Source: an uncultured Candidatus Saccharibacteria bacterium (GTDB lineage: Bacteria; Patescibacteriota; Minisyncoccia; Phycocordibacterales; UBA12088). From it: a stretch of DNA of 64,000 nucleotides. A program made the position numbers and the translations under genes. The stretch covers positions 2,885-66,884 of the forward strand of contig CAZLUD010000003.1 of NCBI GenBank assembly GCA_964562615.1, written 5' to 3'. Under the pieces are notes generated by a model. That model was not told the origin of the DNA, made no database searches, and worked only from the letters and a program-made list of their open reading frames with translations. This document shows, one piece after another, positions 9,175 through 59,832 of the stretch. Numbering within the stretch: position 1 is the stretch's first letter; every line of letters begins with the position of its first letter.

Positions 9175-9176
9175 CT

Positions 9177-13131: not shown

Positions 13132-13330
13132 TTGATGATCAGTCCTTTCCAACAACAACAATTTTTTTATAGATTATTGAGACGTGAAAAGTCTCGATGG
13201 TCAGGGCGGGGTATAAAAATACCTCGCTAGCAAACTGAGCCATACAAGGAAACTTGTATGGCTCACATTCTTGTCATTTTTTTATAAAGATATATGCTCA
13301 AAAAAGTTGAACCACATGTGGGGGTTGCAC

Positions 13331-14533
13331 ATGACTACGGTCTTTCGACCTTACAACGAGACGGAAGCACTGCGATCTGATCGCAGTGCAGGTGATCGCA
13401 AGCGCCATCGCGAGAAGCTGCGGCGCTCGCTTAAGGACAACATTGCCGACATCATCGCCGAGGAGAGCATCATCGGCCGAGATCGAGACAAGGTGATCAA
13501 GGTGCCGATCCGTGGTGTGAAGGAGTATCGCTTCACCTTCGGCAACAATTCAGGCAGTGTCGGTGTTGGCGATGGGAATACAGAAGTTGGGGATATCGTC
13601 GGCCCTGCCGGACAGGGCGAGAAGGGTCAAGGGCCGGCCAGCAATCATCCGGGTCAGGATATCTACGAGACGGAGATCACGATCGACGAGCTGATCGACA
13701 TCATGTTCGAGGATCTGGAACTCCCCGATATGGAGCGGAAGATCCTCAAGGAGGCCCTCGCTGAGCGGACGAGTAAGCGCAAGGGTTACCGCAAGGCCGG
13801 CATTCGTGTGCATCTCGATCGCAAACGTACCATCAAGTCGAAGATTAGGCGGCGGATCGCTCAGGGCCTGCCACTCGTTGATAGTGAGGACGAGACCGAT
13901 TTGCCCGAACATGATGAACGCGAGACCAGCTTTCCTTTTCGCAAGGAGGATCTGACTTACCGCCGTCTGGTCGACGAGCCGCGCGAGGAAAGCAACGCGG
14001 TCGTCATCTGCATCATGGACACGTCGGGCTCGATGGACCGCTTGAAGAAGTATCTGGCCCGAAGCTTCTTCTTTCTGCTCTACCAATTCGTCCGCACGCG
14101 TTATGATCAGGTGAAGATCGTCTTTGTTGCACATCAAAGCGAAGCCGCCGAGGTGACGGAGGACGAGTTCTTTCACAAGGGCGAGTCCGGCGGCACGCTG
14201 ATATCGTCGGGCTACAAGAAGGCGCTCGAGGTAATAGAGCAGCGATTTCACCCGGAGCATTGGAATATCTATGCATTCCACTGCTCGGATGGCGATAATT
14301 TTGGGAGTGACAACGAGGAGACGCTTGCGTGCGCCCAGCAGCTCTGCGACGTCACCAACCTCTTCGGCTATGGCGAAATCAAGCCGATTGGCGGCAACTA
14401 CCATGAGAGCTCGATGCTCGAGCGCTTCCGTCAGATGTGCCGCGACAATTTCCATACCGCGCTGATCAAGCGACGCGAGGATATCTGGCCGGCCTTCGCC
14501 AACCTCATGAAGAAGGATAAAACTAATTACTAA
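13331..14533 (+). CDS. yeaH: YeaH/YhbH family protein (DUF444, vWA-like)
   Basis: Gly-rich GQGEKGQGPASN segment. ELIDIMFEDLELPDM matches YeaH. The vWA-like segment is IMDTSGSM. The GC shift begins at the ATG at 13331; the ORF track's 13271 start lies in an AT-rich spacer. Confidence 0.8.
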   Translation: MTTVFRPYNETEALRSDRSAGDRKRHREKLRRSLKDNIADIIAEESIIGRDRDKVIKVPIRGVKEYRFTFGNNSGSVGVGDGNTEVGDIVGPAGQGEKGQGPASNHPGQDIYETEITIDELIDIMFEDLELPDMERKILKEALAERTSKRKGYRKAGIRVHLDRKRTIKSKIRRRIAQGLPLVDSEDETDLPEHDERETSFPFRKEDLTYRRLVDEPREESNAVVICIMDTSGSMDRLKKYLARSFFFLLYQFVRTRYDQVKIVFVAHQSEAAEVTEDEFFHKGESGGTLISSGYKKALEVIEQRFHPEHWNIYAFHCSDGDNFGSDNEETLACAQQLCDVTNLFGYGEIKPIGGNYHESSMLERFRQMCRDNFHTALIKRREDIWPAFANLMKKDKTNY

Positions 14534-14550
14534 TTGAGGGCAATGCCTCG

Positions 14551-14584
14551 AAGCCGTGCGTGGTACGCACGGCTTTTCTTTTTA
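14551..14584 (+). terminator. rho-independent terminator after yeaH
   Basis: aaGCCGTGCGtggtaCGCACGGCttttcttttt. Confidence 0.7.
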
Positions 14585-14648
14585 TATTTTTGCTATACAG
14601 TGCCGAAAGAAGCCCACTCATGATGAGTGGGTAAAAAGGAGAGTTGTA

Positions 14649-16049
14649 ATGTCTGAATGGAGCTTAGAGGACCTCGAGCGATGGGACGAGCGGATCCAGG
14701 TGAAGGTGGCCAACTACGGGCTCGATTGCTATCCTCAGGAGTTTGAGGTCTGCGATCAGAATGCCATGCTCGGCTACATGGCCTATCACGGCATGCCATC
14801 GCACTACCCGCACTGGTCCTATGGCAAGGCATACGAGCAACAGAAGACCATGTACGACTACGGGGTCACGGGCCTCCCGTATGAGCTGGTCATCAACTCC
14901 GACCCTTGCCTTGCCTACCTCATGCGCGACAACAGTCTGTGCCTACAGATCCTGACGATCGCTCATGTGTACGGGCACAACGACTTCTTCAAGAACAACT
15001 TCACCTTCACCAGCGCCACGCGCGCCAGCGAGACGATTGCATCCTTCAAGACCAGGGCCGATCGGATCCGCCGCTACATGAAGGATCCATCGATTGGCGC
15101 TGATGCGGTCGAGCGCTTCCTCGATGCGGCGCATGCCCTTGCATTCAACCGCACGCGGAACCTGGCGATCAAGAAGCTCGATGCCGAGGGTCAACGCGAG
15201 CGGCTGCGGGATCTTGCTGAGCCAAGGCGCGATCCGTTTGCTGCGATCCACAAAACCGCGGTGCATAACCCGCCCGATCTCTCTTGCTTCCCACTAGAAC
15301 CCGATCAGGACATTCTCTTGTTCGTCCGCGACAACAACAAGGATCTGGCCGCCTGGCAGCGGGACATCCTCACCATCGTAGACGAGGAGACCTGCTACTT
15401 CCTCCCTCAGATTGATACAAAGATCATGAACGAGGGCTGGGCCAGTTTCTGGCACCACAAGCTCATGAACGCGATCGATCTACCGCCCGAGATCCACATG
15501 GAGTTTCTGGTCCGCCACAACCAGGTGGTCTGCCCACATCCAGGCGGCCTCAATCCGTACCATGTTGGCTTTGTCATCTGGTCTGCCCTCGAAAAACGCT
15601 TCGGCGGGGTCGAGTCGAAGGACTGCGTCGCGAATCTCATGCAGATCCGCGAGGCGGAGCGCGATGTCTCGTTCCTGCGTCGTTTTCTCACGCCTGAACT
15701 GATGCATGAACTTGACCTCTTTGCCTACAGACCTCAAGGTGAACACCTCGTCGTGACTGAGGTGAGCGATAAAGATGATTGGGAGCATGTTAAGAACCAG
15801 CTACTCGCGCAGATCGGCTCGAACAGCTTCCCTGTCATCAAGATCGTTGATGCAAATAGTGAGGGGAAGGGTATCCTTCATCTCACTCACGAGCATGATG
15901 GCCGAGATCTCGATGTTACATCTGCAATAAAGACTCTGGTCCATCTTGAGACTTTGTGGGGTAGGGATGTCAGTCTTTTGACATGCATCGGTGCGTCTAA
16001 GAAGAAGATAAAAGTACACAGAGGAGATTCCGAAGTCAAAAACGCTTAG
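14649..16049 (+). CDS. spoVR: SpoVR family protein (YcgB-like)
   Basis: LDCYPQEFEV...MPSHYPHWSYGKAY...LAYLMRDN...IAHVYGHNDFFKNN matches the SpoVR/YcgB family. An AAGGAG RBS precedes the ATG at 14649. Confidence 0.85.
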   Translation: MSEWSLEDLERWDERIQVKVANYGLDCYPQEFEVCDQNAMLGYMAYHGMPSHYPHWSYGKAYEQQKTMYDYGVTGLPYELVINSDPCLAYLMRDNSLCLQILTIAHVYGHNDFFKNNFTFTSATRASETIASFKTRADRIRRYMKDPSIGADAVERFLDAAHALAFNRTRNLAIKKLDAEGQRERLRDLAEPRRDPFAAIHKTAVHNPPDLSCFPLEPDQDILLFVRDNNKDLAAWQRDILTIVDEETCYFLPQIDTKIMNEGWASFWHHKLMNAIDLPPEIHMEFLVRHNQVVCPHPGGLNPYHVGFVIWSALEKRFGGVESKDCVANLMQIREAERDVSFLRRFLTPELMHELDLFAYRPQGEHLVVTEVSDKDDWEHVKNQLLAQIGSNSFPVIKIVDANSEGKGILHLTHEHDGRDLDVTSAIKTLVHLETLWGRDVSLLTCIGASKKKIKVHRGDSEVKNA

Positions 16050-21573: not shown

Positions 21574-23880
21574 GTGCATATACACAGTATGAGTGAAAGC
21601 ACCCCACGCATGGCGACTGAGAAAAAGTCGCTCCCATTACCAACCAGCATCGTAAAGCGGGATGGTAGTTCGGTTACGTTTGATAAGACAAAAATCGCAA
21701 GCGCTGCCGAGAAGGCGCTTAAAGAGACAGGAGAGTATAAAGCAGGCCTACCTTCGGTGGTATCAGATGCGGTGGTGGTTGCGCTATCACACAGAAAGGA
21801 TGCATCAAGCAATCCTCCTACGGTTGAAGATGTGCAGGATTTGGTTGAGAAGGAGCTCATGCTCTTGGGGCTTACTGAAACCGCGAAGGCGTATATTTTG
21901 TATAGACAAAAGCGAGCAGAGGAGAGAAAGCAGGTTGCAATGGTTCCACAGGAGGTAAAAGAATTGGTAGATTCAAGCAAAAAATATTTTCAAAACCAGC
22001 TTTCTGAATTTATTTTTTACACCATGTATGCACGCTGGATCCCAGAGAAAGGTAGACGTGAATCGTGGATAGAGGCAATAGACAGGTACATAGGCTTTAT
22101 GAGAGAGAATATCGGCTCTAAACTCACCGAGGCAGAATACGCTGAGGTAAGAGAGAGTATGCTCAAGATGGAGGCGATGGGATCTATGCGACTTTTGTGG
22201 AGTGCTGGAGAGGCAGCCCGAAAGACAAATGTCTGTGTATATAACTGCGCGTACATCGCACCATCTGCGTGGCAAGATTTCGGAGAAATAATGTACGTAC
22301 TTATGTGCGGCACGGGTATGGGATTTTCTGTTGAGCGACAAACAGTTGAGCAGTTGCCGCTCATACAACGACAGCGTGGAGAGATGCTCCCTACCCACAC
22401 GGTAGAGGATAGCAAAGAAGGGTGGGCGAAAGCCTTCGTAATGGCACTTGAGGTATGGTCTTCAGGAAGGGATATACAATTTGATTACAGCAAAATTCGC
22501 CCACAAGGGTCACGTCTAAAGACTATGGGGGGTAGGGCGTCGGGACCTGATCCACTTATAAAATTGATTAACTACACAAGAGAAAAGATGCTCGCGAGAC
22601 AGGGTAGGCACCTTACCACTCTTGATGTGCACGATATCATCTGCATTACTGGTGAAGTTGTGGTGGCGGGTGGGGTGCGAAGGAGCGCGCTCATCTCGCT
22701 TTCTGACCTCGATGATGGTGATCTTCGTACGGCAAAAAATGGGCAGTTTTATCTCACCAACCCAGAGCGCTCTATGGCAAACAACTCTGTTGCCTATAAC
22801 GAGAAGCCAACCATGCGACAGTTTCTTGATGAGTGGACAAACCTTGCGATTTCAGGTTCTGGAGAGCGAGGTATCTTTAACAGAGGAAGTCTTACCCAGC
22901 AGGTTCCTGCTCGACGATGGAGAAATCTTTCACAAGAAGAGAGATGGAAGACGGGTACTAATCCCTGCGGAGAGATTGTACTCAAGTCAAAGCAGTTTTG
23001 TAACCTGAGCGAGGTGGTAGCACGAGCCGAGGATACAGAAGAAACACTTATGAAGAAGGTTCGCATTGCGACCATACTTGGTACGTATCAAGCATCGCTT
23101 ACCAAGTTTAACTACCTATCAGAAGATTGGAAAAAAAATTGTGATGAAGAAGCGCTTCTCGGGGTATCAATAACAGGGCAATGGGATTCTCCTGTGGTAC
23201 GAAGTCCGCAGACTCTGCGCAAGCTAAAAGAAATAGCAGTTGAGGTTAACCGAGAGTACGCAGCTCGCTTTGGTATCAATCCCTCGACGTGCGTCACTAC
23301 CGTAAAGCCTTCTGGTAACGGGTCACAACTCTTTAACTGCTCATCAGGATTGCATCCACGACATGCTAAGTACTACATTCGTCGTGTGCGCATCGAGGGC
23401 CATAACCCACTCTTTAAGATGTTGGTTGATGAAGGGGTGCCATATCATCCAGAGGTAGGGCAGACGAGAGAAAACGCAAAGACATGGGTTCTCGAGTTTC
23501 CTGTAAAGGCTCCTGCTGGAGCAGTAGTAAAGGATGATGTCTCGGCGCTTGATCACCTTGCGTACTGGAAGGTAGCAAAAGAAAATTACACAGAGCACAA
23601 CCCATCAGTAACTATATCGGTAGGAGAGGACGAGTGGCTTGCGGTAGGTGATTGGGTCTATAAAAACTGGGATATTGTCGGCGGGCTTTCATTCCTTCCT
23701 CGAAGCGAGCATATCTACCAACTTGCTCCATACGAAGAAATTTCTGCTGAAGAATATGAAGCTCGAGCAAAGGCATTTCCTGCGATAGACTTCTCAAAGC
23801 TCTATGTGTACGAACAAGAGGATGTGACAGAAGGCGCAAAAACACTCGCGTGCACCGGCGGTACCTGCGAAATAGTGTAG
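21574..23880 (+). CDS. nrdJ: ribonucleotide reductase, class II (adenosylcobalamin-dependent, monomeric NrdJ type) with an N-terminal ATP-cone
   Basis: ATP-cone segment VKRDGSSVTFDKTKI. Active-site loop TNPCGEIVL (class II type rather than class I NLC.E). C-terminal Cys pair CTGGTC. No nrdB lies nearby. A PduO adenosyltransferase is adjacent. Confidence 0.75.
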   Translation: MHIHSMSESTPRMATEKKSLPLPTSIVKRDGSSVTFDKTKIASAAEKALKETGEYKAGLPSVVSDAVVVALSHRKDASSNPPTVEDVQDLVEKELMLLGLTETAKAYILYRQKRAEERKQVAMVPQEVKELVDSSKKYFQNQLSEFIFYTMYARWIPEKGRRESWIEAIDRYIGFMRENIGSKLTEAEYAEVRESMLKMEAMGSMRLLWSAGEAARKTNVCVYNCAYIAPSAWQDFGEIMYVLMCGTGMGFSVERQTVEQLPLIQRQRGEMLPTHTVEDSKEGWAKAFVMALEVWSSGRDIQFDYSKIRPQGSRLKTMGGRASGPDPLIKLINYTREKMLARQGRHLTTLDVHDIICITGEVVVAGGVRRSALISLSDLDDGDLRTAKNGQFYLTNPERSMANNSVAYNEKPTMRQFLDEWTNLAISGSGERGIFNRGSLTQQVPARRWRNLSQEERWKTGTNPCGEIVLKSKQFCNLSEVVARAEDTEETLMKKVRIATILGTYQASLTKFNYLSEDWKKNCDEEALLGVSITGQWDSPVVRSPQTLRKLKEIAVEVNREYAARFGINPSTCVTTVKPSGNGSQLFNCSSGLHPRHAKYYIRRVRIEGHNPLFKMLVDEGVPYHPEVGQTRENAKTWVLEFPVKAPAGAVVKDDVSALDHLAYWKVAKENYTEHNPSVTISVGEDEWLAVGDWVYKNWDIVGGLSFLPRSEHIYQLAPYEEISAEEYEARAKAFPAIDFSKLYVYEQEDVTEGAKTLACTGGTCEIV

Positions 23881-33163: not shown

Positions 33164-34861
33164 TTGTGGCATGCTTCCACTATGAAAGAAACGGAAGAAT
33201 TAAAAATCGCCATACAGGGAGCGCTTACACAGCTTGGAATAGATGGCGGTGATTTTTCTGTTACCGCGACTGATGATGTGACACATGGCGATTTTGCATC
33301 AAATGTTGCGTTTGTGGTGGCAAGCGTGACAGGATTGACTCCAATTGAGGAGGCAAAGCGGATACTGACACAGATACAACTACCTTCCTATATTGACGCA
33401 GCTACCGTAGCAAAACCTGGGTACATCAATTTTTCATTCACCAGAGAATACTTTTTAAAGACGATAACCTCATTGAGGAGCGATAGTGGGGCATGGGGCA
33501 CATCAACATCATTACAGGGTAGACGGATATTGGTTGAGTATACGCAACCAAATCCCTTCAAGCCATTTCATATTGGACATCTCATGTCTAACACTATTGG
33601 AGAATCGATTTCTCGTCTCATTGAAAATGCCGGCGCCACCATTAAGCGCGCAAACTATCAAGGCGACATCGGCCCCCACGTAGCAAAAACAATGTGGGCG
33701 CTCATGAAGCGTGGCGCATCTGCTGATGATGTATCGGTGCTCGCTGCCGCATATGTAGAAGGAACTGCGGCGTATGAAGAAAACCTCGAAGCAAAACAAG
33801 AAATAGATGATATCAATAAACGCTTGTATAGCGGTGAGTTACGTGAGTCGCCATTGTATATACAAGGTAGAGAAACCTCACTCGCGCGCTTTGAAGAGCT
33901 TTATGCAATACTTGGTACCACATTTGATTACTATTTTTTTGAAACAGAGTCTGCGCCAGTTGGGCGGGAGGTAGTAACAGAGGGTCTTGCAAAAAAAATC
34001 TTTGAAGAGAGTGATGGAGCGATTGTGTTTAATGGTGAGCAATACGGACTCCATACTCGAGTGTTTGTTACGTCAAAAGGCACACCAACGTACGAAACCA
34101 AAGAGCTTGGTCTTGCCGTGTTAAAGCGAAAGGTATTTCCGTATGATGAAAACATAACCATCACCGCGGTTGAGCAGGAACAATATTTTAAGGTGGTAAC
34201 AAAGGCGATGGATATGGTGTGGCCGATACACGCTGGTACCTATAGGCACATTTCTCATGGCATGATGCAGCTTGCTGAGGGTAAGATGTCCTCACGAAAG
34301 GGGAACGTTATTACCGGCGAATCACTCATTGATGATATGCGAGAGAAAGCATATGAGAAAATGAAGGAGCGAGAGCTTGGTGATAAAAAGGCAGAGATAG
34401 CTGATGCCGTAGCAGTAGCAGCGATAAAATATTCAATTCTCAAACAAAGAATGGGAAAAAACATCGCTTTTGATCAAGAGGCATCACTTTCATTTGAAGG
34501 CAACTCGGGTCCATACCTACAATACGCGCATACTCGCGCATGTTCTGTGCTTCGCAAAGCATCCGCAATAGGACTACAAGCATCATATGATGAAGTGCCA
34601 GGTGTAGCATCACCCCTTGAAAAAGAGTTGGCGCGTTTTCCTCAGGTGATTGCACGAGCGTTGCATGAATACGAACCACACCATCTTACCACCTACCTTA
34701 CGCGACTCGCGGCGCTGTTTAATAGTATGTACGCGCAAGAAAAGATTGCGGTAGCAGATGACGTGTACGCACCATATAGGGTCGCGGTTACGGACGCTTT
34801 CAGGATCACCATGGAAAGAGGGCTGTACCTTTTAGGTATAAAATCACCCACAGAAATGTAG
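33164..34861 (+). CDS. argS: arginyl-tRNA synthetase
   Basis: PFHIGHLMSNTIGESISRL (HIGH). KMSSRKGNVIT (KMSKS-like). The C-terminal DALR-like domain is present. An alternative start lies at 33182. Confidence 0.9.
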   Translation: MWHASTMKETEELKIAIQGALTQLGIDGGDFSVTATDDVTHGDFASNVAFVVASVTGLTPIEEAKRILTQIQLPSYIDAATVAKPGYINFSFTREYFLKTITSLRSDSGAWGTSTSLQGRRILVEYTQPNPFKPFHIGHLMSNTIGESISRLIENAGATIKRANYQGDIGPHVAKTMWALMKRGASADDVSVLAAAYVEGTAAYEENLEAKQEIDDINKRLYSGELRESPLYIQGRETSLARFEELYAILGTTFDYYFFETESAPVGREVVTEGLAKKIFEESDGAIVFNGEQYGLHTRVFVTSKGTPTYETKELGLAVLKRKVFPYDENITITAVEQEQYFKVVTKAMDMVWPIHAGTYRHISHGMMQLAEGKMSSRKGNVITGESLIDDMREKAYEKMKERELGDKKAEIADAVAVAAIKYSILKQRMGKNIAFDQEASLSFEGNSGPYLQYAHTRACSVLRKASAIGLQASYDEVPGVASPLEKELARFPQVIARALHEYEPHHLTTYLTRLAALFNSMYAQEKIAVADDVYAPYRVAVTDAFRITMERGLYLLGIKSPTEM

Positions 34862-34901: not shown

Positions 34902-35345
34902 ATGAGGGGGGTCGCTATGTCTAACGTGGTTTCTCTTTTTCCGAATAAACCTGTTATGCCAGTTTTGGAGGTAAGTAGATTTTGCGTAAAAATTAACTTC
35001 ACTGTCGGGTCAATGCATACCCAACAGCCAGTAGAGTGCGATTCATTACATGAATTATTCGGGGAAGCATTTACTTCCATAGGATTGTGGGTGGAAAGGA
35101 ATGTCAGAGTAGGCAGGCTCTGTATCATTTTGAAGGCAAAAAATGGAAGAATTTTATTCTCCGATGATTTTTTTTATAATCACACAACGATTATGTCTTT
35201 TCTTGCCACTGATTTGGCAAGAATAAGGAGTGATGTAACTACTGGTATCATATGTAATGAATACATTATCAATGTTCATTACATTAGTAATGTAGAGATA
35301 ATTAATCTCATGCAATACCGAACTAAAATAGGCTCACGAAAGTGA
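34902..35345 (+). CDS. orphan hypothetical protein (147 aa)
   Basis: A clean ORF between argS and ileS with its own terminator. I recognise no motif. It is AT-rich. Confidence 0.4.
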   Translation: MRGVAMSNVVSLFPNKPVMPVLEVSRFCVKINFTVGSMHTQQPVECDSLHELFGEAFTSIGLWVERNVRVGRLCIILKAKNGRILFSDDFFYNHTTIMSFLATDLARIRSDVTTGIICNEYIINVHYISNVEIINLMQYRTKIGSRK

Positions 35346-35417: not shown

Positions 35418-38400
35418 ATGAAAGACTATAACGATTTTATGAAAGAATACGCCTCTGGCGAGGCAGCGAAACGGGAAAGCAACATACTTGCTTTTTGGGA
35501 CGAGCATGAGGTATTCAAAAAAACACTAGAGAAAGACTCACCAAAAGGCGAATTTATTTTCTACGAAGGTCCACCAACTGCTAATGGTCGCCCAGGTATA
35601 CACCACATTGAGGCTCGATCATTTAAGGATATTATTCCTCGATATAAGACCATGCAGGGGTATCATGTTCGCCGAAAAGGCGGGTGGGATACACACGGTC
35701 TTCCGGTTGAGCTTGAGGTTGAAAAGCGCCTTGGACTAAAAAATAAAAAAGACATAGAAACATTCGGTGTCGCTGCATTTAATGAGGAGTGTAAAAAAAG
35801 CGTGTGGACATACGCGAGCGAGTGGCAGGCATTTACAAAACGCATAGGCTATTGGGTAGATATTGAAGATGCCTATGTCACCTATAAAAGTGATTACATC
35901 GAGTCGGTGTGGCATGTAGTAAAAGAAGCAGACAATAAAGGTCTATTGTATAAGGATTATAAGGTGGTGCCATGGTGTGCTCGCTGTGGGACAGGGCTAT
36001 CAAGTCACGAACTAGCCCAAGGATATGACGAGGTCTCTGACGTATCAGTGTACGTAGCCTTTAAGGTGATTGCAGAAGAGAATACGTATTTGCTCGCGTG
36101 GACCACAACGCCGTGGACTTTGCCTGGTAATGTTGCGCTTGCGGTGCATGAGTCAGTCGAGTACGTAAAAGTAAAAAAAGATGACGCGTACTACTATGTG
36201 GCAAAAGAACGAATGGCCGTTTTGGGCGAAGAGGTGATGGTTGTAAGTAGTCACATGGGTAGTGATTTGGTGGGTATCTCGTATGAACCGCTGTTTCCAT
36301 ACCTTGCCGACTTGTTACCGACAGATCAACAAGAGCGATTAGAAAAGGCGTATAAGGTATATCCTGCGTCATTTGTCACTACCCTTGACGGTACCGGCAT
36401 TGTGCACACTGCCGTCATGTACGGACAAGATGATTTTGAGCTTGGTACGGTGGTGGGGCTACCAAAATTTCATCTTGTTGATGAAAGTGGAAAATTTGTT
36501 AACGGTACCGGCTCGTTACAAGGGCTTGTGGCAAAAGAAAAAGATGTTTTTTCTGAGGCAGAAAAAACCATATTGCGTGAACTTGGAGAGCGCATCTTTA
36601 AAAAAGAGAAAGTCACGCACACCTATCCATTTTGTTGGAGATGCAAACAACCGATTATCTACTACGCTCATGACTCGTGGTATTTTGCGATGTCAAAACT
36701 CCGTGACACGCTCGTAGAGGAGAATCAAAAAATTAATTGGGAGCCGTCCCACATCAAAGACGGACGATTTGGTGAATGGCTCAGTGGGGTAAAGGATTGG
36801 GCGCTGTCACGTGAGCGATATTGGGGCACGCCACTACCAGTCTGGGTATCGTCAGATAATAAAGAGCGACTCGTGGTTGATTCTATTGCCACCATGAGGG
36901 CGCACATGAAGCCGCCCAAGAATACGTTTGTTGTTATGAGGCATGGCGAGGCGCAGTCAAATGCTCATCAGTATTTAAATAGCAGTATTGATGCGCGTAA
37001 CGTACTTACCGATGAAGGAAAGCGACAAGTGCAGGCCCGCATAGAGGAGCTCAAGTCACTTGGTATAACAAAAGTATATACATCGCCACTACCGCGAACC
37101 ATGGAGACTGCTGCATGTATTACCGAGGCGCTCCAGCTTCCTCCGGCTATCATTGATGACCGTTTGAGAGAGACAAATTTTGGAGTCTTTGACGGAAGAC
37201 CTATTCATGAGATGGATGCGGTAATTCCACATCACAAATCATTTACCCATGCTCCAGAAGGAGGGGAGACTATCCGTGATGTCCGCACTCGAGTAGGTTC
37301 GTTTTTGTCTGAAAGAGATAATGAACACGAGGGAGAATCTATTCTTGTCGTTACCCATGCAGACGTGGTGTGGATGAGTCTTGCTATCTCAAACGGGTAT
37401 AGTGAGGATCGTTCAAAGAAAGCATATAAAGAAGGTGATTTTCCAAAAACAGCAGAAATACGAACCGTCTCATTTGTCCCACTTCCATACAATGCATCAT
37501 ACGAAATAGATTTACACCGCCCTTATGTAGATGATGTTGTCCTCTATAGCGACAAAGGAACCCCACTCACTCGTGTGAAGGAGGTTATGGATGTGTGGTT
37601 TGACAGTGGCTGTATGCCCTATGCACAAGACCACTATCCATTTGAGAATAAAGAGTGGGTAGACAATCACGGCTTTCCTGCAGACTATATTGCAGAAGCT
37701 ATCGATCAGACAAGAGGATGGTTTTATACGCTGCATGCGGTGGGGGTACTATTAGGACGCGGCAGGGCATATAAAAATGTCATTTGTTTAGGGCATATAC
37801 TTGATGACAAGGGAAAGAAGATGTCTAAATCACTTGGGAATATTGTAAATCCATGGGAGATGATGGCGCTTCATGGAGTTGATGCACTCAGATTGTTTAT
37901 GTATAGCGTCAATCAACCGGGTGATTCGAAAAATTTTGACCAAAGCACCGTCGACGAGATCACCAAAAAAGTATTTAACCCACTTATAAATACTGTTGCC
38001 TTGTATAGACTTTACGCAAAGGAATCCACGGCAAATCCATTTGAGAGTCCGCACGTGCTTGATATGTGGATATTGGCAATGCTTTCTCGACTAATCACCA
38101 CCACCACAAAGGCGCTTGATGAGTATCGGCTACTTGAATCTTCTCGCGCAATACGAGACTTCATAGCCGACCTGTCTCAGTGGTATGTGCGTCGTTCTCG
38201 GGATAGATATAAAGGCGATAATGAAGAAGATGCCAGGTTTGCGCTTGCTACCACTCGGTATGTACTCGAAACACTTGCAAAAGTGATGGCACCATTCACT
38301 CCTTTTATTGCTGAAGAGGTATATCAAACAGTTCGCACCAACGAAAGCCCATTAAGTGTGCATCTTGCCGCATGGCCACAACCTGCTGGAGATAACGAAG

Positions 38401-38876
38401 AAGTTATAACAAAAATGGAGACTACGCGAGAAATTGTGTCACGCGCTCTTAAACTGCGAGCAGGTGCTGGCATCAAAGTGAGACAGCCACTGAGAGCTCT
38501 ATTATTGCATGCTGATATTGCGATATATCCAGAATTAGTAAAAGAAGAGGTGAATGTAAAAGAGGTAACCTGCGTACCACAAGAAGGAGAGGAAATTTCT
38601 CTTGATACCACCCTTACTGAAGTGCTTATCGAAGAGGGTATTCTTCGAGATCTTTTGCGTGCAATCCAAGACACAAGAAAGGAGGAGGGACTATCACCGT
38701 TTGATAGCGCGTCACTAACTGTTTGTGCAGGAGAGCGCGAACGAGCATTCATTGAGAAGTATCGTACCGATATAATGAAAACCACCAAGGTTACCACTAT
38801 TACGTATACTGAAACAGAACAAGCACACCTCCATACCGCCGAAGGATATTCACTATCCTTTTCTATTGCGACATGA
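35418..38876 (+). CDS. ileS: isoleucyl-tRNA synthetase, type 2 (eukaryote/Thermus-like), carrying an inserted ~195-aa histidine-phosphatase (PGM-family) domain at nt ~36925-37508
   Basis: Collinear with Thermus-type IleRS throughout: YEGPPTANGRPGIHH, GWDTHGLPVELEVEK, KMSKSLGN, DQTRGWFY. The insert carries the RHG motif VVMRHGEAQSN, then VYTSPLPRTMETA, then LRETNFGVFDG, then ILVVTHADVV. Confidence 0.9.
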   Translation: MKDYNDFMKEYASGEAAKRESNILAFWDEHEVFKKTLEKDSPKGEFIFYEGPPTANGRPGIHHIEARSFKDIIPRYKTMQGYHVRRKGGWDTHGLPVELEVEKRLGLKNKKDIETFGVAAFNEECKKSVWTYASEWQAFTKRIGYWVDIEDAYVTYKSDYIESVWHVVKEADNKGLLYKDYKVVPWCARCGTGLSSHELAQGYDEVSDVSVYVAFKVIAEENTYLLAWTTTPWTLPGNVALAVHESVEYVKVKKDDAYYYVAKERMAVLGEEVMVVSSHMGSDLVGISYEPLFPYLADLLPTDQQERLEKAYKVYPASFVTTLDGTGIVHTAVMYGQDDFELGTVVGLPKFHLVDESGKFVNGTGSLQGLVAKEKDVFSEAEKTILRELGERIFKKEKVTHTYPFCWRCKQPIIYYAHDSWYFAMSKLRDTLVEENQKINWEPSHIKDGRFGEWLSGVKDWALSRERYWGTPLPVWVSSDNKERLVVDSIATMRAHMKPPKNTFVVMRHGEAQSNAHQYLNSSIDARNVLTDEGKRQVQARIEELKSLGITKVYTSPLPRTMETAACITEALQLPPAIIDDRLRETNFGVFDGRPIHEMDAVIPHHKSFTHAPEGGETIRDVRTRVGSFLSERDNEHEGESILVVTHADVVWMSLAISNGYSEDRSKKAYKEGDFPKTAEIRTVSFVPLPYNASYEIDLHRPYVDDVVLYSDKGTPLTRVKEVMDVWFDSGCMPYAQDHYPFENKEWVDNHGFPADYIAEAIDQTRGWFYTLHAVGVLLGRGRAYKNVICLGHILDDKGKKMSKSLGNIVNPWEMMALHGVDALRLFMYSVNQPGDSKNFDQSTVDEITKKVFNPLINTVALYRLYAKESTANPFESPHVLDMWILAMLSRLITTTTKALDEYRLLESSRAIRDFIADLSQWYVRRSRDRYKGDNEEDARFALATTRYVLETLAKVMAPFTPFIAEEVYQTVRTNESPLSVHLAAWPQPAGDNEEVITKMETTREIVSRALKLRAGAGIKVRQPLRALLLHADIAIYPELVKEEVNVKEVTCVPQEGEEISLDTTLTEVLIEEGILRDLLRAIQDTRKEEGLSPFDSASLTVCAGERERAFIEKYRTDIMKTTKVTTITYTETEQAHLHTAEGYSLSFSIAT

Positions 38877-39469
38877 GTCATCATATCTATAGGACAGAGG
38901 CGATAGTACTATCTGCACGCCCCTATAAAGAGGCGAATCTCCTCGCTACCTTTCTTACGCGCGAGATGGGCGTGGTACGTGCGGTAGTTATTAGTGGCAG
39001 AAAAGAATCGTCTCGCTTGCGATACGGCGTGCAGCCACTCTCACAAGTAGAGCTCTCTCTGGTGCGCGGCAAACTGCTTTGGAGAGTTACCGGGGTTCAT
39101 GTGGTTGAACAGTGGCAAACAACACTTGTGCGTAAGAGTGATAGGGAAATAATGCGACGCATAGGAAATCTCATTGAGGCACTAGTAGTAGAAGAGGATG
39201 CGAGTGTGACATTATATACCACCTTTATAGAGGGTATGCGCGCTATAGTGCTCGAGTCTGATGCGGGGATACGCTCTTTGAGGGAGTTGTACATGGTTCG
39301 GTACATACTAGGAGAGCTTGGATATATGGAAAAAGAAACCACCGCTTTGTTTAACTTGTCATCAGTGGTAAGCAAAGAAGCTATTGAGGCTATGATGAAA
39401 GAAAAGGCAACCTTGGTAGGAAAGATAAATCACGCAATTGGTGCATCACAGTTGTACCGAAGTCATTAA
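38873..39469 (+). CDS. recO: DNA repair protein RecO (short form)
   Basis: TEAIVLSARPYKEANLLATFLTREMGVVRAVVISGRKESSRLRYGVQPLSQVELSL matches the RecO N-terminal OB pattern. Confidence 0.7.
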   Translation: MSHHIYRTEAIVLSARPYKEANLLATFLTREMGVVRAVVISGRKESSRLRYGVQPLSQVELSLVRGKLLWRVTGVHVVEQWQTTLVRKSDREIMRRIGNLIEALVVEEDASVTLYTTFIEGMRAIVLESDAGIRSLRELYMVRYILGELGYMEKETTALFNLSSVVSKEAIEAMMKEKATLVGKINHAIGASQLYRSH

Positions 39470-39490: not shown

Positions 39491-41452
39491 ATGAATGAAA
39501 AGGATGATGATGCTATACATAAGGTGCAATCCAAGCTCTACTCGCGAAAACAAGCGATAGAGCCAAGAGAGCGCAGGCAACTTGCTCCTGATACCCATGT
39601 GGTTTCTGAGGAGTGGGGGACACAGGATGTGGTAGCTGACCCATCCTATACCACCATGCTCATCTCAAAGATGAGAGCGCGTGCATCTGCAGCAAAACGG
39701 ACACAAGAGATGCTCCCTTCGGTAAAGATACTACTCATAGCGTCAGTAGTTTTTTTCCTCTTCTCGTCTGTTGTCTCACTCATTTTGTTTTTTGGAGGTT
39801 CAAATGTCGTGTCTGCCCGAAATATTGATATTGAAATAGCGGGTCCCGTTGCTATGGAGGGTGGTCAAGAGTTGGTGCTACAGATTGGCATAGTAAACAG
39901 AAATTCAATACCTCTTGAGCTTGCTGATCTTATTGTTGAATATCCTGATGGAACACGAATGTCAGGCAACCTTAATGCTGAGTTGCCACGAACAAGAGAA
40001 TCAATCGGCACCATTAAGCCGGGAGAGAAAGTAAAAAAAACCGCTCGCGCAATTTTGTTTGGACCTGAAAATTCTTCACAGCGTGTACTCGTTACTCTTG
40101 AATATCGCATACAAGATTCAAATGCCATTTTTGTGAAGGAGGCATCACACGATATCGTGCTTAGCGCGGCACCAATAGCAGTACGAGTGGGAGCACTAGA
40201 GGAGGTGGTTTCTGGTCAAGAAGTAGAATTTACCGTTGAGCTTATTTCTAACTCAACACAAACCATAGAGGATGTGTTGTTGGTAGCTGAATACCCACAA
40301 GGATTTGAACTTACCGAGAGTAATCCTAAAGCCTCATTTGATTCACATATTTGGGCACTAGGTTCTCTAGAGCCAAAAACAAAAAAGGTAGTTACCTTGC
40401 GTGGGGTGGTGATAGGACAAAATCTTGAATCACGAATAATTCGTTTTAATGTGGGTGTACAAAGCAAGAGTAACGAACGTGAGCTAGCCGCGACATTCGG
40501 GACCAATGAATCTTCATTTGTTATCAAAAAACCATTCATAGGACTTGCAGTAGGAATAAATGGATCTACCACGCAAGGAGATGCAGTGATTGCGGGTGGT
40601 GAGGCGGTACGAGTGGATATTGTTTGGGAAAACAATCTACCGACAAAGATTTTGGATGGTGAAATAATCGTCTCACTTTCTGGTGGTGGATACGACAGAA
40701 AATCAGTTGCAGCAGCAAATGGTTTTTATGATTCTAATACCAACACCATTCGATGGACGGCAGAGACTATCCCTGCGCTTAAAGAAATAGCTCCCGGTGC
40801 AAGGGGGAGTGTTTCTTATAGCATAAAGACCCTCGCGATAGCAGATGATAGAAGTAACAATCAAACTCTCTCACTAGATACTCGTATACGAGGAAGAAGA
40901 ATTAACGAGGTAAATGTTCCAGAAGAAATAGAGTCATTAGTTACGAAGCGAGCGCTTATTGCTACCGATCTTATTTTTACCGCTCGCTCGCTGTATAGCA
41001 CCGGCGCCTTCAGTAACAGTGGTCCGATACCGCCAAAGGCAGAAACACAGACAACGTACACCGTGGTGTGGTCGCTTGGAAATAGTGTTAATGATCTTGA
41101 GAATGTAAAAGTGGTGGCAAACATTCCATCATATGTAAAATGGCTAGGTGCAATTAATCCTATAGGTGAAGATGTGGTATACAATCCCGTTGGTGGGAGA
41201 GTGACATGGAATGTCGGCACGCTCCCTGCGGGTGTGGGTACTAATACTAAATCAAGAGAGGTGTCCTTTCAGATTGCGATAACTCCAAGCCTCTCACAGA
41301 TTGATGAATCACCCCTGTTGGTAGGGCAGCAATCAGTCACTGGGCTTGACTCATTTACAAAGACGCAGATACAATCCTCCTACGCTCCTGTAACGACAGA
41401 ATTACTTCTTGATCCTGCGCATGGACGAGGGTCAGGGAAGGTGGCACCATAA
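39491..41452 (+). CDS. large N-terminally membrane-anchored beta-rich protein (653 aa), function unknown
   Basis: One TM (ILLIASVVFFLFSSVVSLILFF) followed by about 550 aa of repetitive Ig/CARDB-like beta segments. Confidence 0.5.
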   Translation: MNEKDDDAIHKVQSKLYSRKQAIEPRERRQLAPDTHVVSEEWGTQDVVADPSYTTMLISKMRARASAAKRTQEMLPSVKILLIASVVFFLFSSVVSLILFFGGSNVVSARNIDIEIAGPVAMEGGQELVLQIGIVNRNSIPLELADLIVEYPDGTRMSGNLNAELPRTRESIGTIKPGEKVKKTARAILFGPENSSQRVLVTLEYRIQDSNAIFVKEASHDIVLSAAPIAVRVGALEEVVSGQEVEFTVELISNSTQTIEDVLLVAEYPQGFELTESNPKASFDSHIWALGSLEPKTKKVVTLRGVVIGQNLESRIIRFNVGVQSKSNERELAATFGTNESSFVIKKPFIGLAVGINGSTTQGDAVIAGGEAVRVDIVWENNLPTKILDGEIIVSLSGGGYDRKSVAAANGFYDSNTNTIRWTAETIPALKEIAPGARGSVSYSIKTLAIADDRSNNQTLSLDTRIRGRRINEVNVPEEIESLVTKRALIATDLIFTARSLYSTGAFSNSGPIPPKAETQTTYTVVWSLGNSVNDLENVKVVANIPSYVKWLGAINPIGEDVVYNPVGGRVTWNVGTLPAGVGTNTKSREVSFQIAITPSLSQIDESPLLVGQQSVTGLDSFTKTQIQSSYAPVTTELLLDPAHGRGSGKVAP

Positions 41453-41456
41453 CCGC

Positions 41457-42848
41457 ATGAAAGAACCACAAAAAGAATCATCCATCGAGAAAGTAGTGTC
41501 ACTTTGTAAACGAAGAGGCTTTATATTTCCGGGGTCAGAAATCTACGGAGGACTAGCTGGTACGTATGACTACGGACCTCTTGGTCTTGCTATAAAAAAG
41601 AACATCGAAGCGCTGTGGTGGAAGCATTTTGTAGACAGCAGGGACGAGGTGTACGGCATAGACAGCGCCATACTCATGAATCCTCGAGTCTGGGAAGCGT
41701 CAGGGCACGTTGGAGGATTTTCAGACCCGTTAGTTGAGGATGTGGTTAATCACAAACGATATCGCGCTGATCACCTGCTTGAAGAGGCGGGTGTGGATGT
41801 CTCTGGTATGTCACTTGCACAGATGGGAGAGATGCTTTTGGAAAAGAATATAAAGAGTGCGGATGGAAACTCTCTCTCAAGTCCACAACAATTCAATATG
41901 ATGTTTAAAACATCAGTTGGCTCAGTAGAAGGACCAGACCAAATAGCGTATCTCAGACCAGAAACCGCGCAGGGCATGTTTGTGAATTTCAAAAATATCA
42001 TTGACACCTTTCATCCAAAACTTCCTTTTGGTATTGCGCAAATTGGGAAAAATTTTAGAAATGAAATTGCACCACGAGATTTTATTTTTAGAGTACGCGA
42101 GCTTGAGATAATGGAATTTGAGTACTTCTTAGAAGAAAAGAATTGGCAAGAGACATTTGAATCACTCAAAATACTATCGCATGAGTTGTTTGCGCTCCTT
42201 GGATTTTCTTCTGATGATGTTAAAGAAGTAGAAGTAGGTGATGGGGATAGAGCCCACTACAGTAAGAGGACGCTTGATTTCTACTTTAAGTACCCATTCG
42301 GATATAAAGAAATAGGCGGTATCGCGTACCGTGGAGATTTTGACCTACGTAACCATATTGATAAAAGTGGTGCAGACTTGCGCTACCATGACGCCACAAG
42401 TAACGAAAAATTTGTACCTCATGTAATTGAGCCCACCTTTGGACTCGGACGATTAGTACTTGCCGTACTTGCTAAAGCATATGATGAGGATACGTTAGGG
42501 GGTGAGGATAGAGTGGTGCTTAGACTCCCAAAACATCTTGCCCCGTATCAGGCAGCAGTGTTTCCTCTGCTTAAAAACAAACCAGAGCTTCAAACCAAAG
42601 CGCGTGAGGTGTACGCACAGCTTAAAAAGGATTTTCCACGAATTACCTTTGATGATAATGGCAATATTGGCAAGCGCTATAGAAGACAAGATGAAATTGG
42701 AACACCACTTTGCATTACTATCGATTTTGACACACTCGGAGAAGGGGATGAGGCTACAAACAAAGACACGGTAACGGTGCGGGATAGGGACTCCGGAGAA
42801 CAGCACCGTGTCGCTATTGCCGACCTTGCGTCACATTTGCTCAGATAA
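41457..42848 (+). CDS. glyQS: glycyl-tRNA synthetase (dimeric GlyQS type)
   Basis: VSLCKRRGFIFPGSEIYGGLAGTYDYGPLG is the canonical start. Class II motifs are present. The ATG at 41457 lies just after the upstream stop. Confidence 0.9.
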   Translation: MKEPQKESSIEKVVSLCKRRGFIFPGSEIYGGLAGTYDYGPLGLAIKKNIEALWWKHFVDSRDEVYGIDSAILMNPRVWEASGHVGGFSDPLVEDVVNHKRYRADHLLEEAGVDVSGMSLAQMGEMLLEKNIKSADGNSLSSPQQFNMMFKTSVGSVEGPDQIAYLRPETAQGMFVNFKNIIDTFHPKLPFGIAQIGKNFRNEIAPRDFIFRVRELEIMEFEYFLEEKNWQETFESLKILSHELFALLGFSSDDVKEVEVGDGDRAHYSKRTLDFYFKYPFGYKEIGGIAYRGDFDLRNHIDKSGADLRYHDATSNEKFVPHVIEPTFGLGRLVLAVLAKAYDEDTLGGEDRVVLRLPKHLAPYQAAVFPLLKNKPELQTKAREVYAQLKKDFPRITFDDNGNIGKRYRRQDEIGTPLCITIDFDTLGEGDEATNKDTVTVRDRDSGEQHRVAIADLASHLLR

Positions 42849-43972: not shown

Positions 43973-45412
43973 ATGGTGAAAAAACCTTTATTTATATCGA
44001 CCTCTATACCGTATGTAAACGCAAGACCTCACCTCGGTCATGCGCTAGAATTTGTACAAGCAGATGCATTTGCTCGTTTTGCGAGGATGGTGGGATATGA
44101 TGTGTTTTTTCTTTCAGGGACTGATGACAATGCCTTAAAGAATGTGCTCAAGGCTGAAGAAGCGGGAGAGGACGTTCGCAAGTATGTAAATCGCCACGCG
44201 CTAATCTTTAAAGAGCTACTCGAACAACTCAATGTCTCTCATGATGATTTTATACGTACCTCGCATGACGCTCGACACTTGGTGGGGGCGCAAACTCTAT
44301 GGAAGTCTTTCAAAAAAGAAGACGTGGTAAAAAAGGAGTACGAGGGATTGTATTGTGTTGGGTGTGAAGAATTTAAAACAGAGAAAGATTTAGTTAATGG
44401 TGAATGTCCCGAACATCCCGGAAAGAAACCAGAGCGAATCTTAGAAGAAAATTATTTCTTTAAACTCGGCAATTATACTGAGGCATTAATCGCATACATT
44501 GAAGAAGATAAGCTTCGTATTAGTCCGCAGACAAGAAAAAATGAAGTACTCAGTTTTTTGCGAGGAGGACTAGAGGATCTTAGTATTTCTCGTAGTATGG
44601 CACGTGCGCACGGGTGGGGGGTGCCGGTGCCTCACGATGATTCTCAGGTTATGTATGTATGGGTAGATGCGCTATCAAATTACATCACCGCGCTCGAGTA
44701 CGGCACTCATGGAGACAACTTTACTCACTACTGGGAAAACCCAGCTTCAAGAAGTATTCATGTTATTGGTAAAGGTATAAGCAGGTTCCATGCTATTTAT
44801 TGGCCGGCAATGCTTCTGTCTGCTGGGGTACCACTACCGAAACAGCTTGTGGTGCACGGATACATCACTGTAAATGCACAAAAAATGTCAAAAACAATTG
44901 GTAATGTGGTTGACCCGTTATCGCTTGTTGCTGAGTATGGCACTGATGCGGTGCGGTACTATCTCCTTAGAGAAGTACATCCGTTTGAAGACGGAGACTT
45001 TACCTTTGAGCGATTTAAAGAGGTCTATAATGCCAATCTTGCAAATGGGCTAGGTAATGTAGTGTCTCGTGTTATGAAGCTTGCAGAAACATATCTTGCA
45101 GCAGATGAACTACCTACCATAGAAATGCCAGAAGCATTTGCCGCGCTACTAGAAGAGTACAAATACAATGAGGCAATGGATTATATTTGGAAACTAATCA
45201 AAGAGGCAGATGGCAGAATGACCAGTGAAGAGCCGTTTAAACTCATAAAGACTGATAGTGAGAAGGCGAAAAAGTGTATATATGAACTTCGCGCTATGGT
45301 GTATGCCATAGGGTGGTTACTCGCGCCGATGCTTCCAGAAACAAGCGAAAAAATACTCCAAGCGGTACGCGATAATAAAAAACCAGAACCACTCTTTTTA
45401 AGAAGGGACTAA
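43973..45412 (+). CDS. metG: methionyl-tRNA synthetase (short form)
   Basis: IPYVNARPHLGHALE (HIGH) and KMSKTIGNVV (KMSKS). Confidence 0.9.
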   Translation: MVKKPLFISTSIPYVNARPHLGHALEFVQADAFARFARMVGYDVFFLSGTDDNALKNVLKAEEAGEDVRKYVNRHALIFKELLEQLNVSHDDFIRTSHDARHLVGAQTLWKSFKKEDVVKKEYEGLYCVGCEEFKTEKDLVNGECPEHPGKKPERILEENYFFKLGNYTEALIAYIEEDKLRISPQTRKNEVLSFLRGGLEDLSISRSMARAHGWGVPVPHDDSQVMYVWVDALSNYITALEYGTHGDNFTHYWENPASRSIHVIGKGISRFHAIYWPAMLLSAGVPLPKQLVVHGYITVNAQKMSKTIGNVVDPLSLVAEYGTDAVRYYLLREVHPFEDGDFTFERFKEVYNANLANGLGNVVSRVMKLAETYLAADELPTIEMPEAFAALLEEYKYNEAMDYIWKLIKEADGRMTSEEPFKLIKTDSEKAKKCIYELRAMVYAIGWLLAPMLPETSEKILQAVRDNKKPEPLFLRRD

Positions 45413-59734: not shown

Positions 59735-59832
59735 ATTGAGAGCTATATTGACGTATACTTTTTTTAATTGTACCGTTGTCACGGGTAAGGTACTTACCCA
59801 GAACCTTAACATCCACACGAAAGGAAGCTTCG

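Follow-up and report, generated by a model that had tools for sequence, protein, structure and literature searches.

Why would an isoleucyl-tRNA synthetase (IleRS) carry a second, complete enzyme inside its own catalytic domain? The question is raised by ileS (35418–38876, + strand, 1152 aa), a gene for a type-2 IleRS with a nested phosphatase domain, located in a stretch of 64,000 nucleotides from an uncultured Candidatus Saccharibacteria bacterium (contig CAZLUD010000003.1) that was analyzed as a whole and is called the window here. An earlier inspection of the letters and the translated open reading frames (ORFs), made without database searches and called the sequence-only reading in the following, had noticed the domain. 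Synthetases are among the best-studied enzymes, and where they have acquired extra domains, these as a rule point to additional biology, for example in editing, tRNA binding or regulation. Here, we demonstrate the architecture of this protein, the fold of the nested domain, the conservation of its residues, the purifying selection acting on it, its distribution, the alternation between split and fused states and its recurrence in valyl-tRNA synthetase (ValRS). The explanation that we favor, with somewhat better than even confidence, is that a phosphatase of the PhoE/PspA/GpgP type, ~185 residues long and followed by a linker of ~10 residues, is nested in IleRS as a partner enzyme of the synthetase.

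A histidine phosphatase in the zinc-knuckle loop of IleRS

The ileS product matched the NCBIfam equivalog TIGR00392 with 861 bits (cut-off 621.4) in two stretches flanking the insert, and Pfam recognized tRNA-synt_1, His_Phos_1, Anticodon_1 and DUF5915 in the 1152-aa protein. Its best solved relatives were the type-2 IleRS of Priestia megaterium (8c8u/8c8w) and Thermus thermophilus (1ile), with E values of ~1e-228. The alignment to 8c8w and 1ile spanned the query from residue 9–16 to ~1133 with one break only, where query residues 497 to 696 face chain residues 478 to 485, which agrees with the end-to-end type-2 alignment and single interruption that the sequence-only reading had described. 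The ~195-aa insert that it had placed there was also recovered, comprising aa 503–697 (36924–37508, + strand), that is, a complete branch-1 histidine phosphatase ordered over aa 503–687 plus a C-terminal linker, at a site where Thermus has only ‘KPLPEPF’. The previously quoted end of the insert was correct, and its start, 36925, was one base late and hence one base past the codon boundary, so that the quoted range contains stop codons in frame 1.

When aa 503–690 were deleted in silico, the remaining protein aligned continuously to residues 412–569 of Thermus IleRS with a gap of 2 residues. The insertion point is at the tip of the zinc knuckle, which lies between ‘WGTPLPVW’ and ‘DLHRPYVD’ and is the last of the connective-peptide elements in the catalytic domain. 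Going by sequence order, this element is CP3 in the nomenclature of PMC11685878, and it precedes the second half of the Rossmann fold; for comparison, the core boundaries given for PmIleRS2 are 40–168 and 513–632 (PMC10485003). The window protein reads ...WVSSDNKE...KPPKN, the insert and ASYEIDLHRPYVDDVVLYSDKG at the junction, and its Thermus counterpart begins ...WVCQACGKE.... In the first half of the knuckle (W476-VSSDNK482, 36843–36863; WVCQACGK in Thermus), both Cys are replaced, by S478 and N481, and the same holds for the second half (L709-YSDKGT715, 37542–37562; LACACGG in Thermus), with S711 and K713, both halves being defined by the alignment to 1ile and lying on the + strand. The return into IleRS is made by the linker PLPYNASYEI (aa 688–697, 37479–37508, + strand), the last residues of which had a predicted local distance difference test score (pLDDT) below 50; a PLPHNxxYEL form of it is conserved in one large fusion subclade. 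In line with what had been noted before, the insert is in frame and resembles its host gene in composition, as the GC content is 0.448 for both and the relative synonymous codon usage of the insert correlated with that of the remaining gene at r=0.75, compared with 0.31–0.58 for equal-sized chunks of the gene itself.

The four hallmark motifs assigned to the insert by the sequence-only reading are present in the correct order, namely VVMRHGEAQSN (R508, H509), VYTSPLPRTMETA (R560), LRETNFGVFDG (E585) and ILVVTHADVV (H647), and the check that had been recommended against the Pfam model His_Phos_1 (PF00300) returned a match over residues 505–662 that is far beyond chance (E=8.2e-34, 117.4 bits against a cut-off of 21.7). 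In a phmmer alignment with crystallized PhoE (1h2e/1ebb), R508-H509-G510, R560, E585 and H647 paired with the PhoE catalytic residues. These are the phosphate-binding Arg and nucleophilic His of the RHG motif (36939–36944, pairing with that of 1h2e), the second catalytic Arg (37095–37097), the proton-donor Glu (37170–37172) and the second catalytic His (37356–37358), all on the + strand. The assignment of the latter three also draws on their conservation across 306 domains (184 inserted and 122 standalone), in all of which R560, H647 and E617 were invariant and in which position E585 was occupied by Glu (282) or Asp (24). R508 and H509 were unchanged wherever covered, i.e., in 179 of the 184 inserted domains, the other 5 being N-terminally truncated, and in all 122 standalone ones.

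Structure prediction, likewise proposed as a check, gave an AlphaFold2 model of the insert from a 106-sequence alignment with a mean pLDDT of 93 and a predicted template modeling score of 0.89. Residues 1–185 of the insert were well ordered in the alpha/beta fold of the superfamily, which brings the catalytic residues together, and the last ~10 formed the low-confidence linker. Small-molecule enzymes led the fold comparison (PspA 22.8, GpgP 22.3, PhoE 21.6, the riboflavin-pathway phosphatase 9mmh 21.6 and CobC 20.2), with the protein phosphatases SixA (14.9), PGAM5 (14.3) and Sts-2 (13.7) well behind, a ranking that identifies the insert as a whole enzyme of the free-standing type and of the small-molecule phosphatase kind. 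The ratio of nonsynonymous to synonymous substitutions (dN/dS) versus the closest ortholog, L002 (88% identical), was 0.039 for the insert, an approximate value as its dS is near saturation (proportion of synonymous differences, pS, 0.72), in agreement with pN/pS, and 0.045 and 0.054 for the N and C parts of the synthetase, so that purifying selection on the insert is as strong as on the synthetase. We are thus highly confident that the insert is a real, selected and, as far as can be predicted, catalytically competent phosphatase domain, and the full Arg-His/Arg/Glu/His set seen in sequence and fold bears out the catalytic intactness claimed for it earlier.

Several named identities were tried for the insert and rejected at the equivalog level of NCBIfam: dPGM (90.8 bits versus 225 for dPGM_arch, 55 versus 261 for GpmB and ≤30 versus cut-offs >300 for the GpmA type), CobC (89 versus 163), PspA (64 versus 350) and SixA (28 versus 74), which is not the closest fold either. 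The PADLOC models matched neither the insert nor the whole IleRS nor a 147-aa ORF upstream of ileS.

Distribution, split form and recurrence in ValRS

A word-indexed homolog search with the insert and its flanks returned 4 matches, one of them a fragment of the same architecture, and badly underestimated the family. An exhaustive HMMER search of 1.84 billion cluster representatives (50%-identity clusters, E≤1e-3) yielded 15,842 matches. Among the best 150 representatives, at least 111 were whole or fragmentary IleRS that carry the phosphatase at this site, as recognized by both flanks (78), the N flank only (8) or the C flank only (25). When every GTDB species was represented by one genome and scanned with 6 close sequences, in which the junction peptide YE[LI]DLHRP[YF] was the single junction variant, at least 599 stretches were obtained, 594 of which passed tblastn; the best 80 of these at least 594 species genomes were inspected, and 594 is hence a count of candidates. 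All 80 matched the full insert, at 36–88% identity, and all belong to Patescibacteria, among them Kaiser-, Nomura-, Adler-, Taylor- and Lloydbacteria, Paceibacterota, Minisyncoccia, Parcubacteria and others. The fusion is therefore a trait of a very large clade, present in hundreds of candidate genomes, and not a peculiarity of this single protein. The possibility raised by the sequence-only reading, a module found specifically in the CPR (candidate phyla radiation), is probably right.

The closest relative, L002, is 87–92% identical across the gene and shares both the architecture and the neighbors, which places the window in a Patescibacteria genome, probably one of the Paceibacteria/Parcubacteria group. 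In the 37 full-length fusion proteins that we aligned, the insert always sits in the same loop, and most of them keep the CxxC before and the CxC or CxxC after it. The lack of the canonical zinc-binding Cys, which had been pointed out correctly for the window protein, is thus no family trait; a Cys-less knuckle occurred in a minority only (P0015, P0016, P0045, P0117, P0140, P0141 and P0143). As most fusion relatives and all six IleRS of the split form described below retain these Cys, their loss in the window protein is lineage-specific and no bar to membership in type 2. Since RAAC4_OD1_1 and GW2011 genomes are among the matches, sequences of this kind have been publicly accessible for some ten years, and the only named fusion among the matches is annotated plainly as ‘isoleucine--tRNA ligase’.

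A profile derived from the inserts found its best matches in hundreds of free-standing Patescibacteria proteins of ~185–200 aa which, where named, are annotated as ‘broad specificity phosphatase PhoE’ or as ‘histidine phosphatase family protein’. Their consensus starts at the RHG strand, covers the insert up to its final strand and ends at the beginning of the linker. For six of these standalone homologs, situated on long contigs and picked from the top of the match list, the genomic surroundings were analyzed. The phosphatase gene lay directly upstream of an insert-less ileS (940–972 aa) on the same strand in all six, and all six of these IleRS keep the four knuckle Cys and a short loop. The gene order was smpB, argS, (small ORF), phosphatase, ileS, (small ORF), recO, which is the same block as in the window, with argS upstream at every split locus and at most of the 80 fusion loci. 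Phosphatase stop and ileS start overlap (ATGA) or abut, within about 1–3 nt, in five of the six loci and are 24 nt apart in the sixth (gaps of -4, +1, +1, +1, +2 and +24 nt), suggesting a 1:1 partnership. No second phosphatase copy was found in the flanks of the 80 fusion loci, and the window itself holds the nested copy only, so that the nested and split states were mutually exclusive in all 86 loci. On a neighbor-joining tree of 299 phosphatase domains, the inserted or standalone character changed ~4 times, compared with 84–94 times after shuffling of the labels; the tree is rough, and ~4 should be read as ‘few’. Both states consequently appear to be old and largely vertically inherited, with few switches between them.

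In the window, ileS is preceded by argS (33164–34861, +, TIGR00456) and followed by recO (38873–39469, +, TIGR00613), the ATG of which overlaps the ileS stop (ATGA, 38873–38876), so that argS-ileS-recO probably form one operon; most of the 86 related loci show the three genes in this order as well. The 147-aa ORF between argS and ileS (34902–35345, +) had no Pfam or NCBIfam match and no tblastn match even in L002, where argS and ileS are ~540 nt apart, and may not be a real gene or may be evolving very rapidly. At this place, a small ORF that is unrelated to it is sometimes present in relatives with the split state.

The association of the phosphatase with synthetases takes further forms. Among them, the occurrence in ValRS is, along with the split form, the most informative finding, and neither was accessible to the sequence-only reading. 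Two phosphatase domains were detected in some IleRS (P0051, P0063, P0082, P0083 and P0096); in P0051 (1419 aa), the second copy (aa 871–1061) lies between the catalytic and anticodon-binding domains and is present besides the one in the zinc knuckle. Another sequence, P0007, is a ValRS (NF004349, 411 bits) with four phosphatase domains, one after the ‘QWF’ region and three in tandem after ‘WWGHRIPVWY’, a site homologous to that in IleRS. Five further ValRS-phosphatase sequences (P0274–P0278) were found, as well as a valS region with at least 3 phosphatase copies and fragmented gene calls on a 195-kb contig of a metagenome-assembled genome. Copies within one protein are 31–50% identical, which marks them as old duplicates rather than products of recent slippage, and each copy in P0007 keeps the catalytic residues that it covers, the fourth being truncated before the second His. 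The ValRS-phosphatase proteins stem from uncultured bacteria (P0007/L089, L090 and L091), and the fragmentation of the gene calls in L091 (4369–8188) is probably due to assembly frameshifts. A separate observation concerns the IleRS P0126 (1066 aa), with an IS200-like Y1 transposase domain in the editing region (aa 340–461), a histidine phosphatase (aa 680–854) and a C-terminal GNAT domain (aa 935–1063), which could be a real mosaic or a gene-calling read-through.

The proposed coupling to the synthetase and the alternatives

We propose that phosphatase gene and ileS make up a conserved two-gene module, which the nested domain represents in covalent form, and that the insertion into the knuckle may represent the covalent capture of a pre-existing contact between phosphatase and IleRS. 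The phosphatase would be a stoichiometric partner of a class Ia synthetase and would act as a small-molecule phosphomonoesterase; to judge from the predicted fold, its substrate is more likely to be a small phosphomonoester than a protein, and the presence of several diverged active copies speaks for catalytic capacity or multiple specificities rather than for a single regulatory act. As the substrate, we would tentatively suggest a phosphorylated product or by-product, of nucleotide type or other, that is handled at the synthetase, with nucleotide-type by-products ranked first, and the assignment to any particular substrate class is doubtful at best. Of the roles considered in the sequence-only reading (alarmones, nucleotides, editing), none is singled out by the present results. 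We infer that both activities coexist in one protein and are coupled physically and functionally, the functional coupling itself being somewhat more probable than its absence.

Several points weigh against this proposal. The substrate cannot be read from the sequence, and the phosphatase activity is a predicted one. The scores of the insert below every NCBIfam equivalog cut-off, among them those of the dPGM_arch, CobC, PspA and SixA models, mean that no substrate can be transferred by homology. A single-sequence AlphaFold model of the full-length protein had a mean pLDDT of 34, too low to show how the active site of the phosphatase is positioned with respect to the synthetic site, to the KMSKS loop or to the tRNA. 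The split form is represented by six loci only, and the adjacency of the two genes lies within a deeply conserved syntenic block, so that it could reflect inherited order and not functional linkage; in E. coli, ribF is located upstream of ileS and is not known to be functionally linked to it. Finally, the count of one ileS gene refers to the 64-kb window.

The main alternative is that an unrelated housekeeping enzyme, a phosphatase or divergent mutase of central metabolism acting, for instance, in the phosphoglycerate mutase step or as a phosphoserine or sugar-phosphate phosphatase, was encoded upstream of ileS and then trapped in a tolerant surface loop, so that the two activities are independent and the fusion ensures co-expression only. 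The conservation of the argS-ileS-recO order irrespective of the phosphatase would fit, as would the nearest folds, which are metabolic small-molecule enzymes, the top NCBIfam match, which is the archaeal dPGM model, and the several old, diverged copies per protein, which are compatible with a need for capacity or several specificities. The mutase step has also been reported missing in some of the organisms concerned, with phosphoglycerate mutase apparently absent in several Parcubacteria clades (Jaffe et al.). Adjacency alone, however, would not lead one to expect independent insertions in the homologous loop of ValRS and at a second site of IleRS, and the overlap or abutment of phosphatase stop and ileS start in all but one of the six split loci suggests a 1:1 partnership. 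Moreover, dPGM enzymes are characterized by ‘HGN’ after the second His and by an RR pair, whereas the domain studied here has ‘THAD’ or ‘SHGD’ at the former position, lacks the latter and scores far below the dPGM cut-offs. Taken together, we regard such a housekeeping capture as possible, if rather unlikely. A macromolecular substrate in cis or nearby, such as an inhibitory phosphate on the synthetase or a 3′- or 2′-phosphate or pyrophosphate on the CCA end of the tRNA, is a clearly less probable solution. Class I synthetases are phosphorylated in their KMSKS region by toxin kinases of the HipA type, and tRNA-end pyrophosphorylation has precedent; the small size of the domain (~185 aa) with its short cap, its tethering to the catalytic domain ~100 residues before KMSKS and its recurrence in two class Ia synthetases would suit a function of this kind. 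Yet the fold is clearly nearer to small-molecule phosphatases than to SixA, PGAM5 and Sts, repair in cis would hardly call for three or four diverged copies in a single ValRS, damage to tRNA ends would hit all tRNAs and not those for Ile and Val alone, and no kinase or toxin link was found, nor any match to the PADLOC models.

That the domain is non-catalytic, its fold being kept as a structural or as a phosphate- or tRNA-binding appendage, e.g., as a substitute for lost zinc-knuckle stabilization, appears very improbable. The zinc ligands are indeed gone in the window protein, so that its loop needs another stabilizer, and catalytically silent histidine-phosphatase domains exist; TFIIIC tau55, which has no known substrate, was among the fold matches. 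Pseudoenzymes normally lose their catalytic residues, though, while here no copy deviates at the nucleophilic His, the two Arg or the second His where it covers them, and the Glu position is E or D; in addition, all four zinc Cys are still present in most fusions, and the standalone homologs look like ordinary enzymes. The remaining explanation, according to which the insert is an artefact (a chimeric assembly or a wrongly called gene) or a selfish element (an intein or a mobile insertion), can be considered refuted, its probability being negligible. The sole hint in its favor is the linker form ‘PLPHN’, which superficially resembles the C-terminal HN of inteins, but the window protein has YN at this place and no N-terminal Cys or Ser nucleophile. 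An artefact is further contradicted by the continuous reading frame, the agreement of composition and codon usage with the gene, the strong purifying selection and the occurrence of the same architecture in 80 inspected genomes (L002 and 79 more) from many studies. The verdict of the sequence-only reading that the insert is not intein-like holds, as no Hint or intein model of Pfam matched (E≤0.01), the insert starts with TFVV and ends with ...YNASYEI, and its fold is that of an alpha/beta phosphatase. A recent horizontal insertion was ruled out by codon usage, selection and the architecture shared across loci.

The partner enzyme remains the preferred explanation. In its widest and most tentative form, it would mean that in Patescibacteria, IleRS and, in some lineages, ValRS as class Ia synthetases may depend on a dedicated histidine phosphatase as an integral accessory activity, present as a translationally coupled subunit or nested in CP3, that acts directly on what the synthetase produces or binds, be it a nucleotide by-product, pyrophosphate-type leaving groups or a phosphorylated tRNA end. 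If true, a previously unknown catalytic step would be attached to aminoacylation in a major bacterial radiation. In a full-text literature search, no aminoacyl-tRNA synthetase was found to have been described with a histidine phosphatase inside or next to it, and recent broad studies of IleRS evolution and structure make no mention of a phosphatase insert; the arrangement is real, widespread and present in databases, but apparently unremarked. That much of the CPR has an IleRS whose catalytic domain houses a second, apparently active enzyme, found also as a two-gene module and also in ValRS, raises the directly testable question of what role a phosphomonoesterase plays for class Ia synthetases when genomes are minimal. 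There are consequences for annotation, since the embedded domain may be mistaken for, or hide, a ‘phosphoglycerate mutase-family’ function in reconstructions of CPR pathways, and for the study of protein evolution it offers a clean natural case of a whole enzyme inserted in a loop.

The host synthetase, the window and known systems

Judged by its motifs and domains, the synthetase looks functional. Its class I signature has the non-canonical form GIHH (G60-I-H-H63, 35595–35606, +), i.e., GXHH instead of HXGH, and KMSKS is intact (aa 801–805, 37818–37832, +). The CP1 editing domain (~aa 202–404, 36021–36629, +) matches the isolated IleRS editing domains 1wk8 and 1wny and is accompanied by a retained hinge zinc site composed of C187 and C190 (WCARC 186–190) and C406 and C409 (CWRC 406–409). 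Pfam assigned the anticodon-binding helical and type-2 C-terminal domains (38061–38867, +) to Anticodon_1 (aa 882–1027) and DUF5915 (aa 1059–1150); according to the Pfam matches and the Cys positions, there is no C-terminal Cys cluster and hence no C-terminal zinc-binding domain in the window IleRS. In IleRS2, the GXHH form is functional and tied to mupirocin hyper-resistance with a Ki in the millimolar range (Brkic et al. 2023, PMC10485003). Both signature forms, GXHH and HXGH, occur among the 37 aligned phosphatase-containing IleRS. The acquired mupirocin-resistance enzymes MupA and MupB were rejected as an identity, with 739 and 718 bits against a cut-off of 1900 in the NCBIfam exception models, and an exact-sequence look-up of the window IleRS returned no record.

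The window is dense in synthetase genes between 33164 and 62478, with argS, ileS, a class II enzyme (41409–42848), metG (43973–45412, only 479 aa) and two adjacent class IIb enzymes (59776–61149 and 61168–62478), and none of the other synthetase genes in the window contains a phosphatase. Elsewhere in the window, all on the + strand, we noticed a 1710-aa protein running in from the window edge (4–5136), with a Peptidase_S74 intramolecular-chaperone and a C-terminal bacterial Ig-like domain, which resembles phage tail-fiber or surface-fiber proteins; a FIST-domain protein with a histidine kinase (8023–10223); a trio of PrkA serine kinase, DUF444 and SpoVR proteins (11200–16049), a stress module of the YeaG-YeaH-YcgB type that is notable in a reduced CPR genome; and a B12-dependent (class II) ribonucleotide reductase with an ATP-cone (21574–23880), consistent with nucleotide salvage rather than de novo synthesis.

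Compared with the solved type-2 enzymes of Thermus (1ILE) and Priestia (8C8U, 8C8W), the window protein is homologous from end to end and shares the editing domain, KMSKS and the type-2 C-terminus devoid of a zinc-binding domain; it also has the GXHH variant that is found in the hyper-resistant IleRS2 clade. It differs from them by the 195-aa enzyme in the zinc-knuckle loop, where the solved enzymes have 5–6 residues, by the loss of the four knuckle Cys and, from the solved IleRS2, by being ~80 aa shorter when the insert is subtracted. The insert in turn resembles PhoE/YhfR (1H2E), the phosphoserine phosphatase PspA (4IJ5), the glucosyl-3-phosphoglycerate phosphatase Rv2419c (4PZ9, 6S2Q) and CobC (6E4B) in the identity and order of its catalytic residues and in having the size of a free-standing enzyme. 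It is, however, only 21–27% identical to them, stays below the equivalog cut-offs and is nested in another enzyme or, in the split form, encoded as its translationally coupled partner.

A precedent for a bacterial IleRS with an extra enzyme domain exists in the NCBIfam family NF040702, ‘ileS_w_GNAT’, in which the added enzyme and the family are different (the window protein reached 284 bits against a cut-off of 1999); NCBIfam has no model for a phosphatase-containing IleRS. Active histidine-phosphatase domains that share one chain with a second enzyme are also known from the mycobacterial MutT1 (Nudix and RHG), from Rv2228c (RNase H and a CobC-like acid phosphatase) and from PFK-2/FBPase-2, and for MutT1 the substrate of the partner had to come from experiment (PMC12407098). 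All of these are end-to-end fusions, whereas in the case presented here the phosphatase is inserted within the catalytic domain of its partner, and this partner is an aminoacyl-tRNA synthetase.

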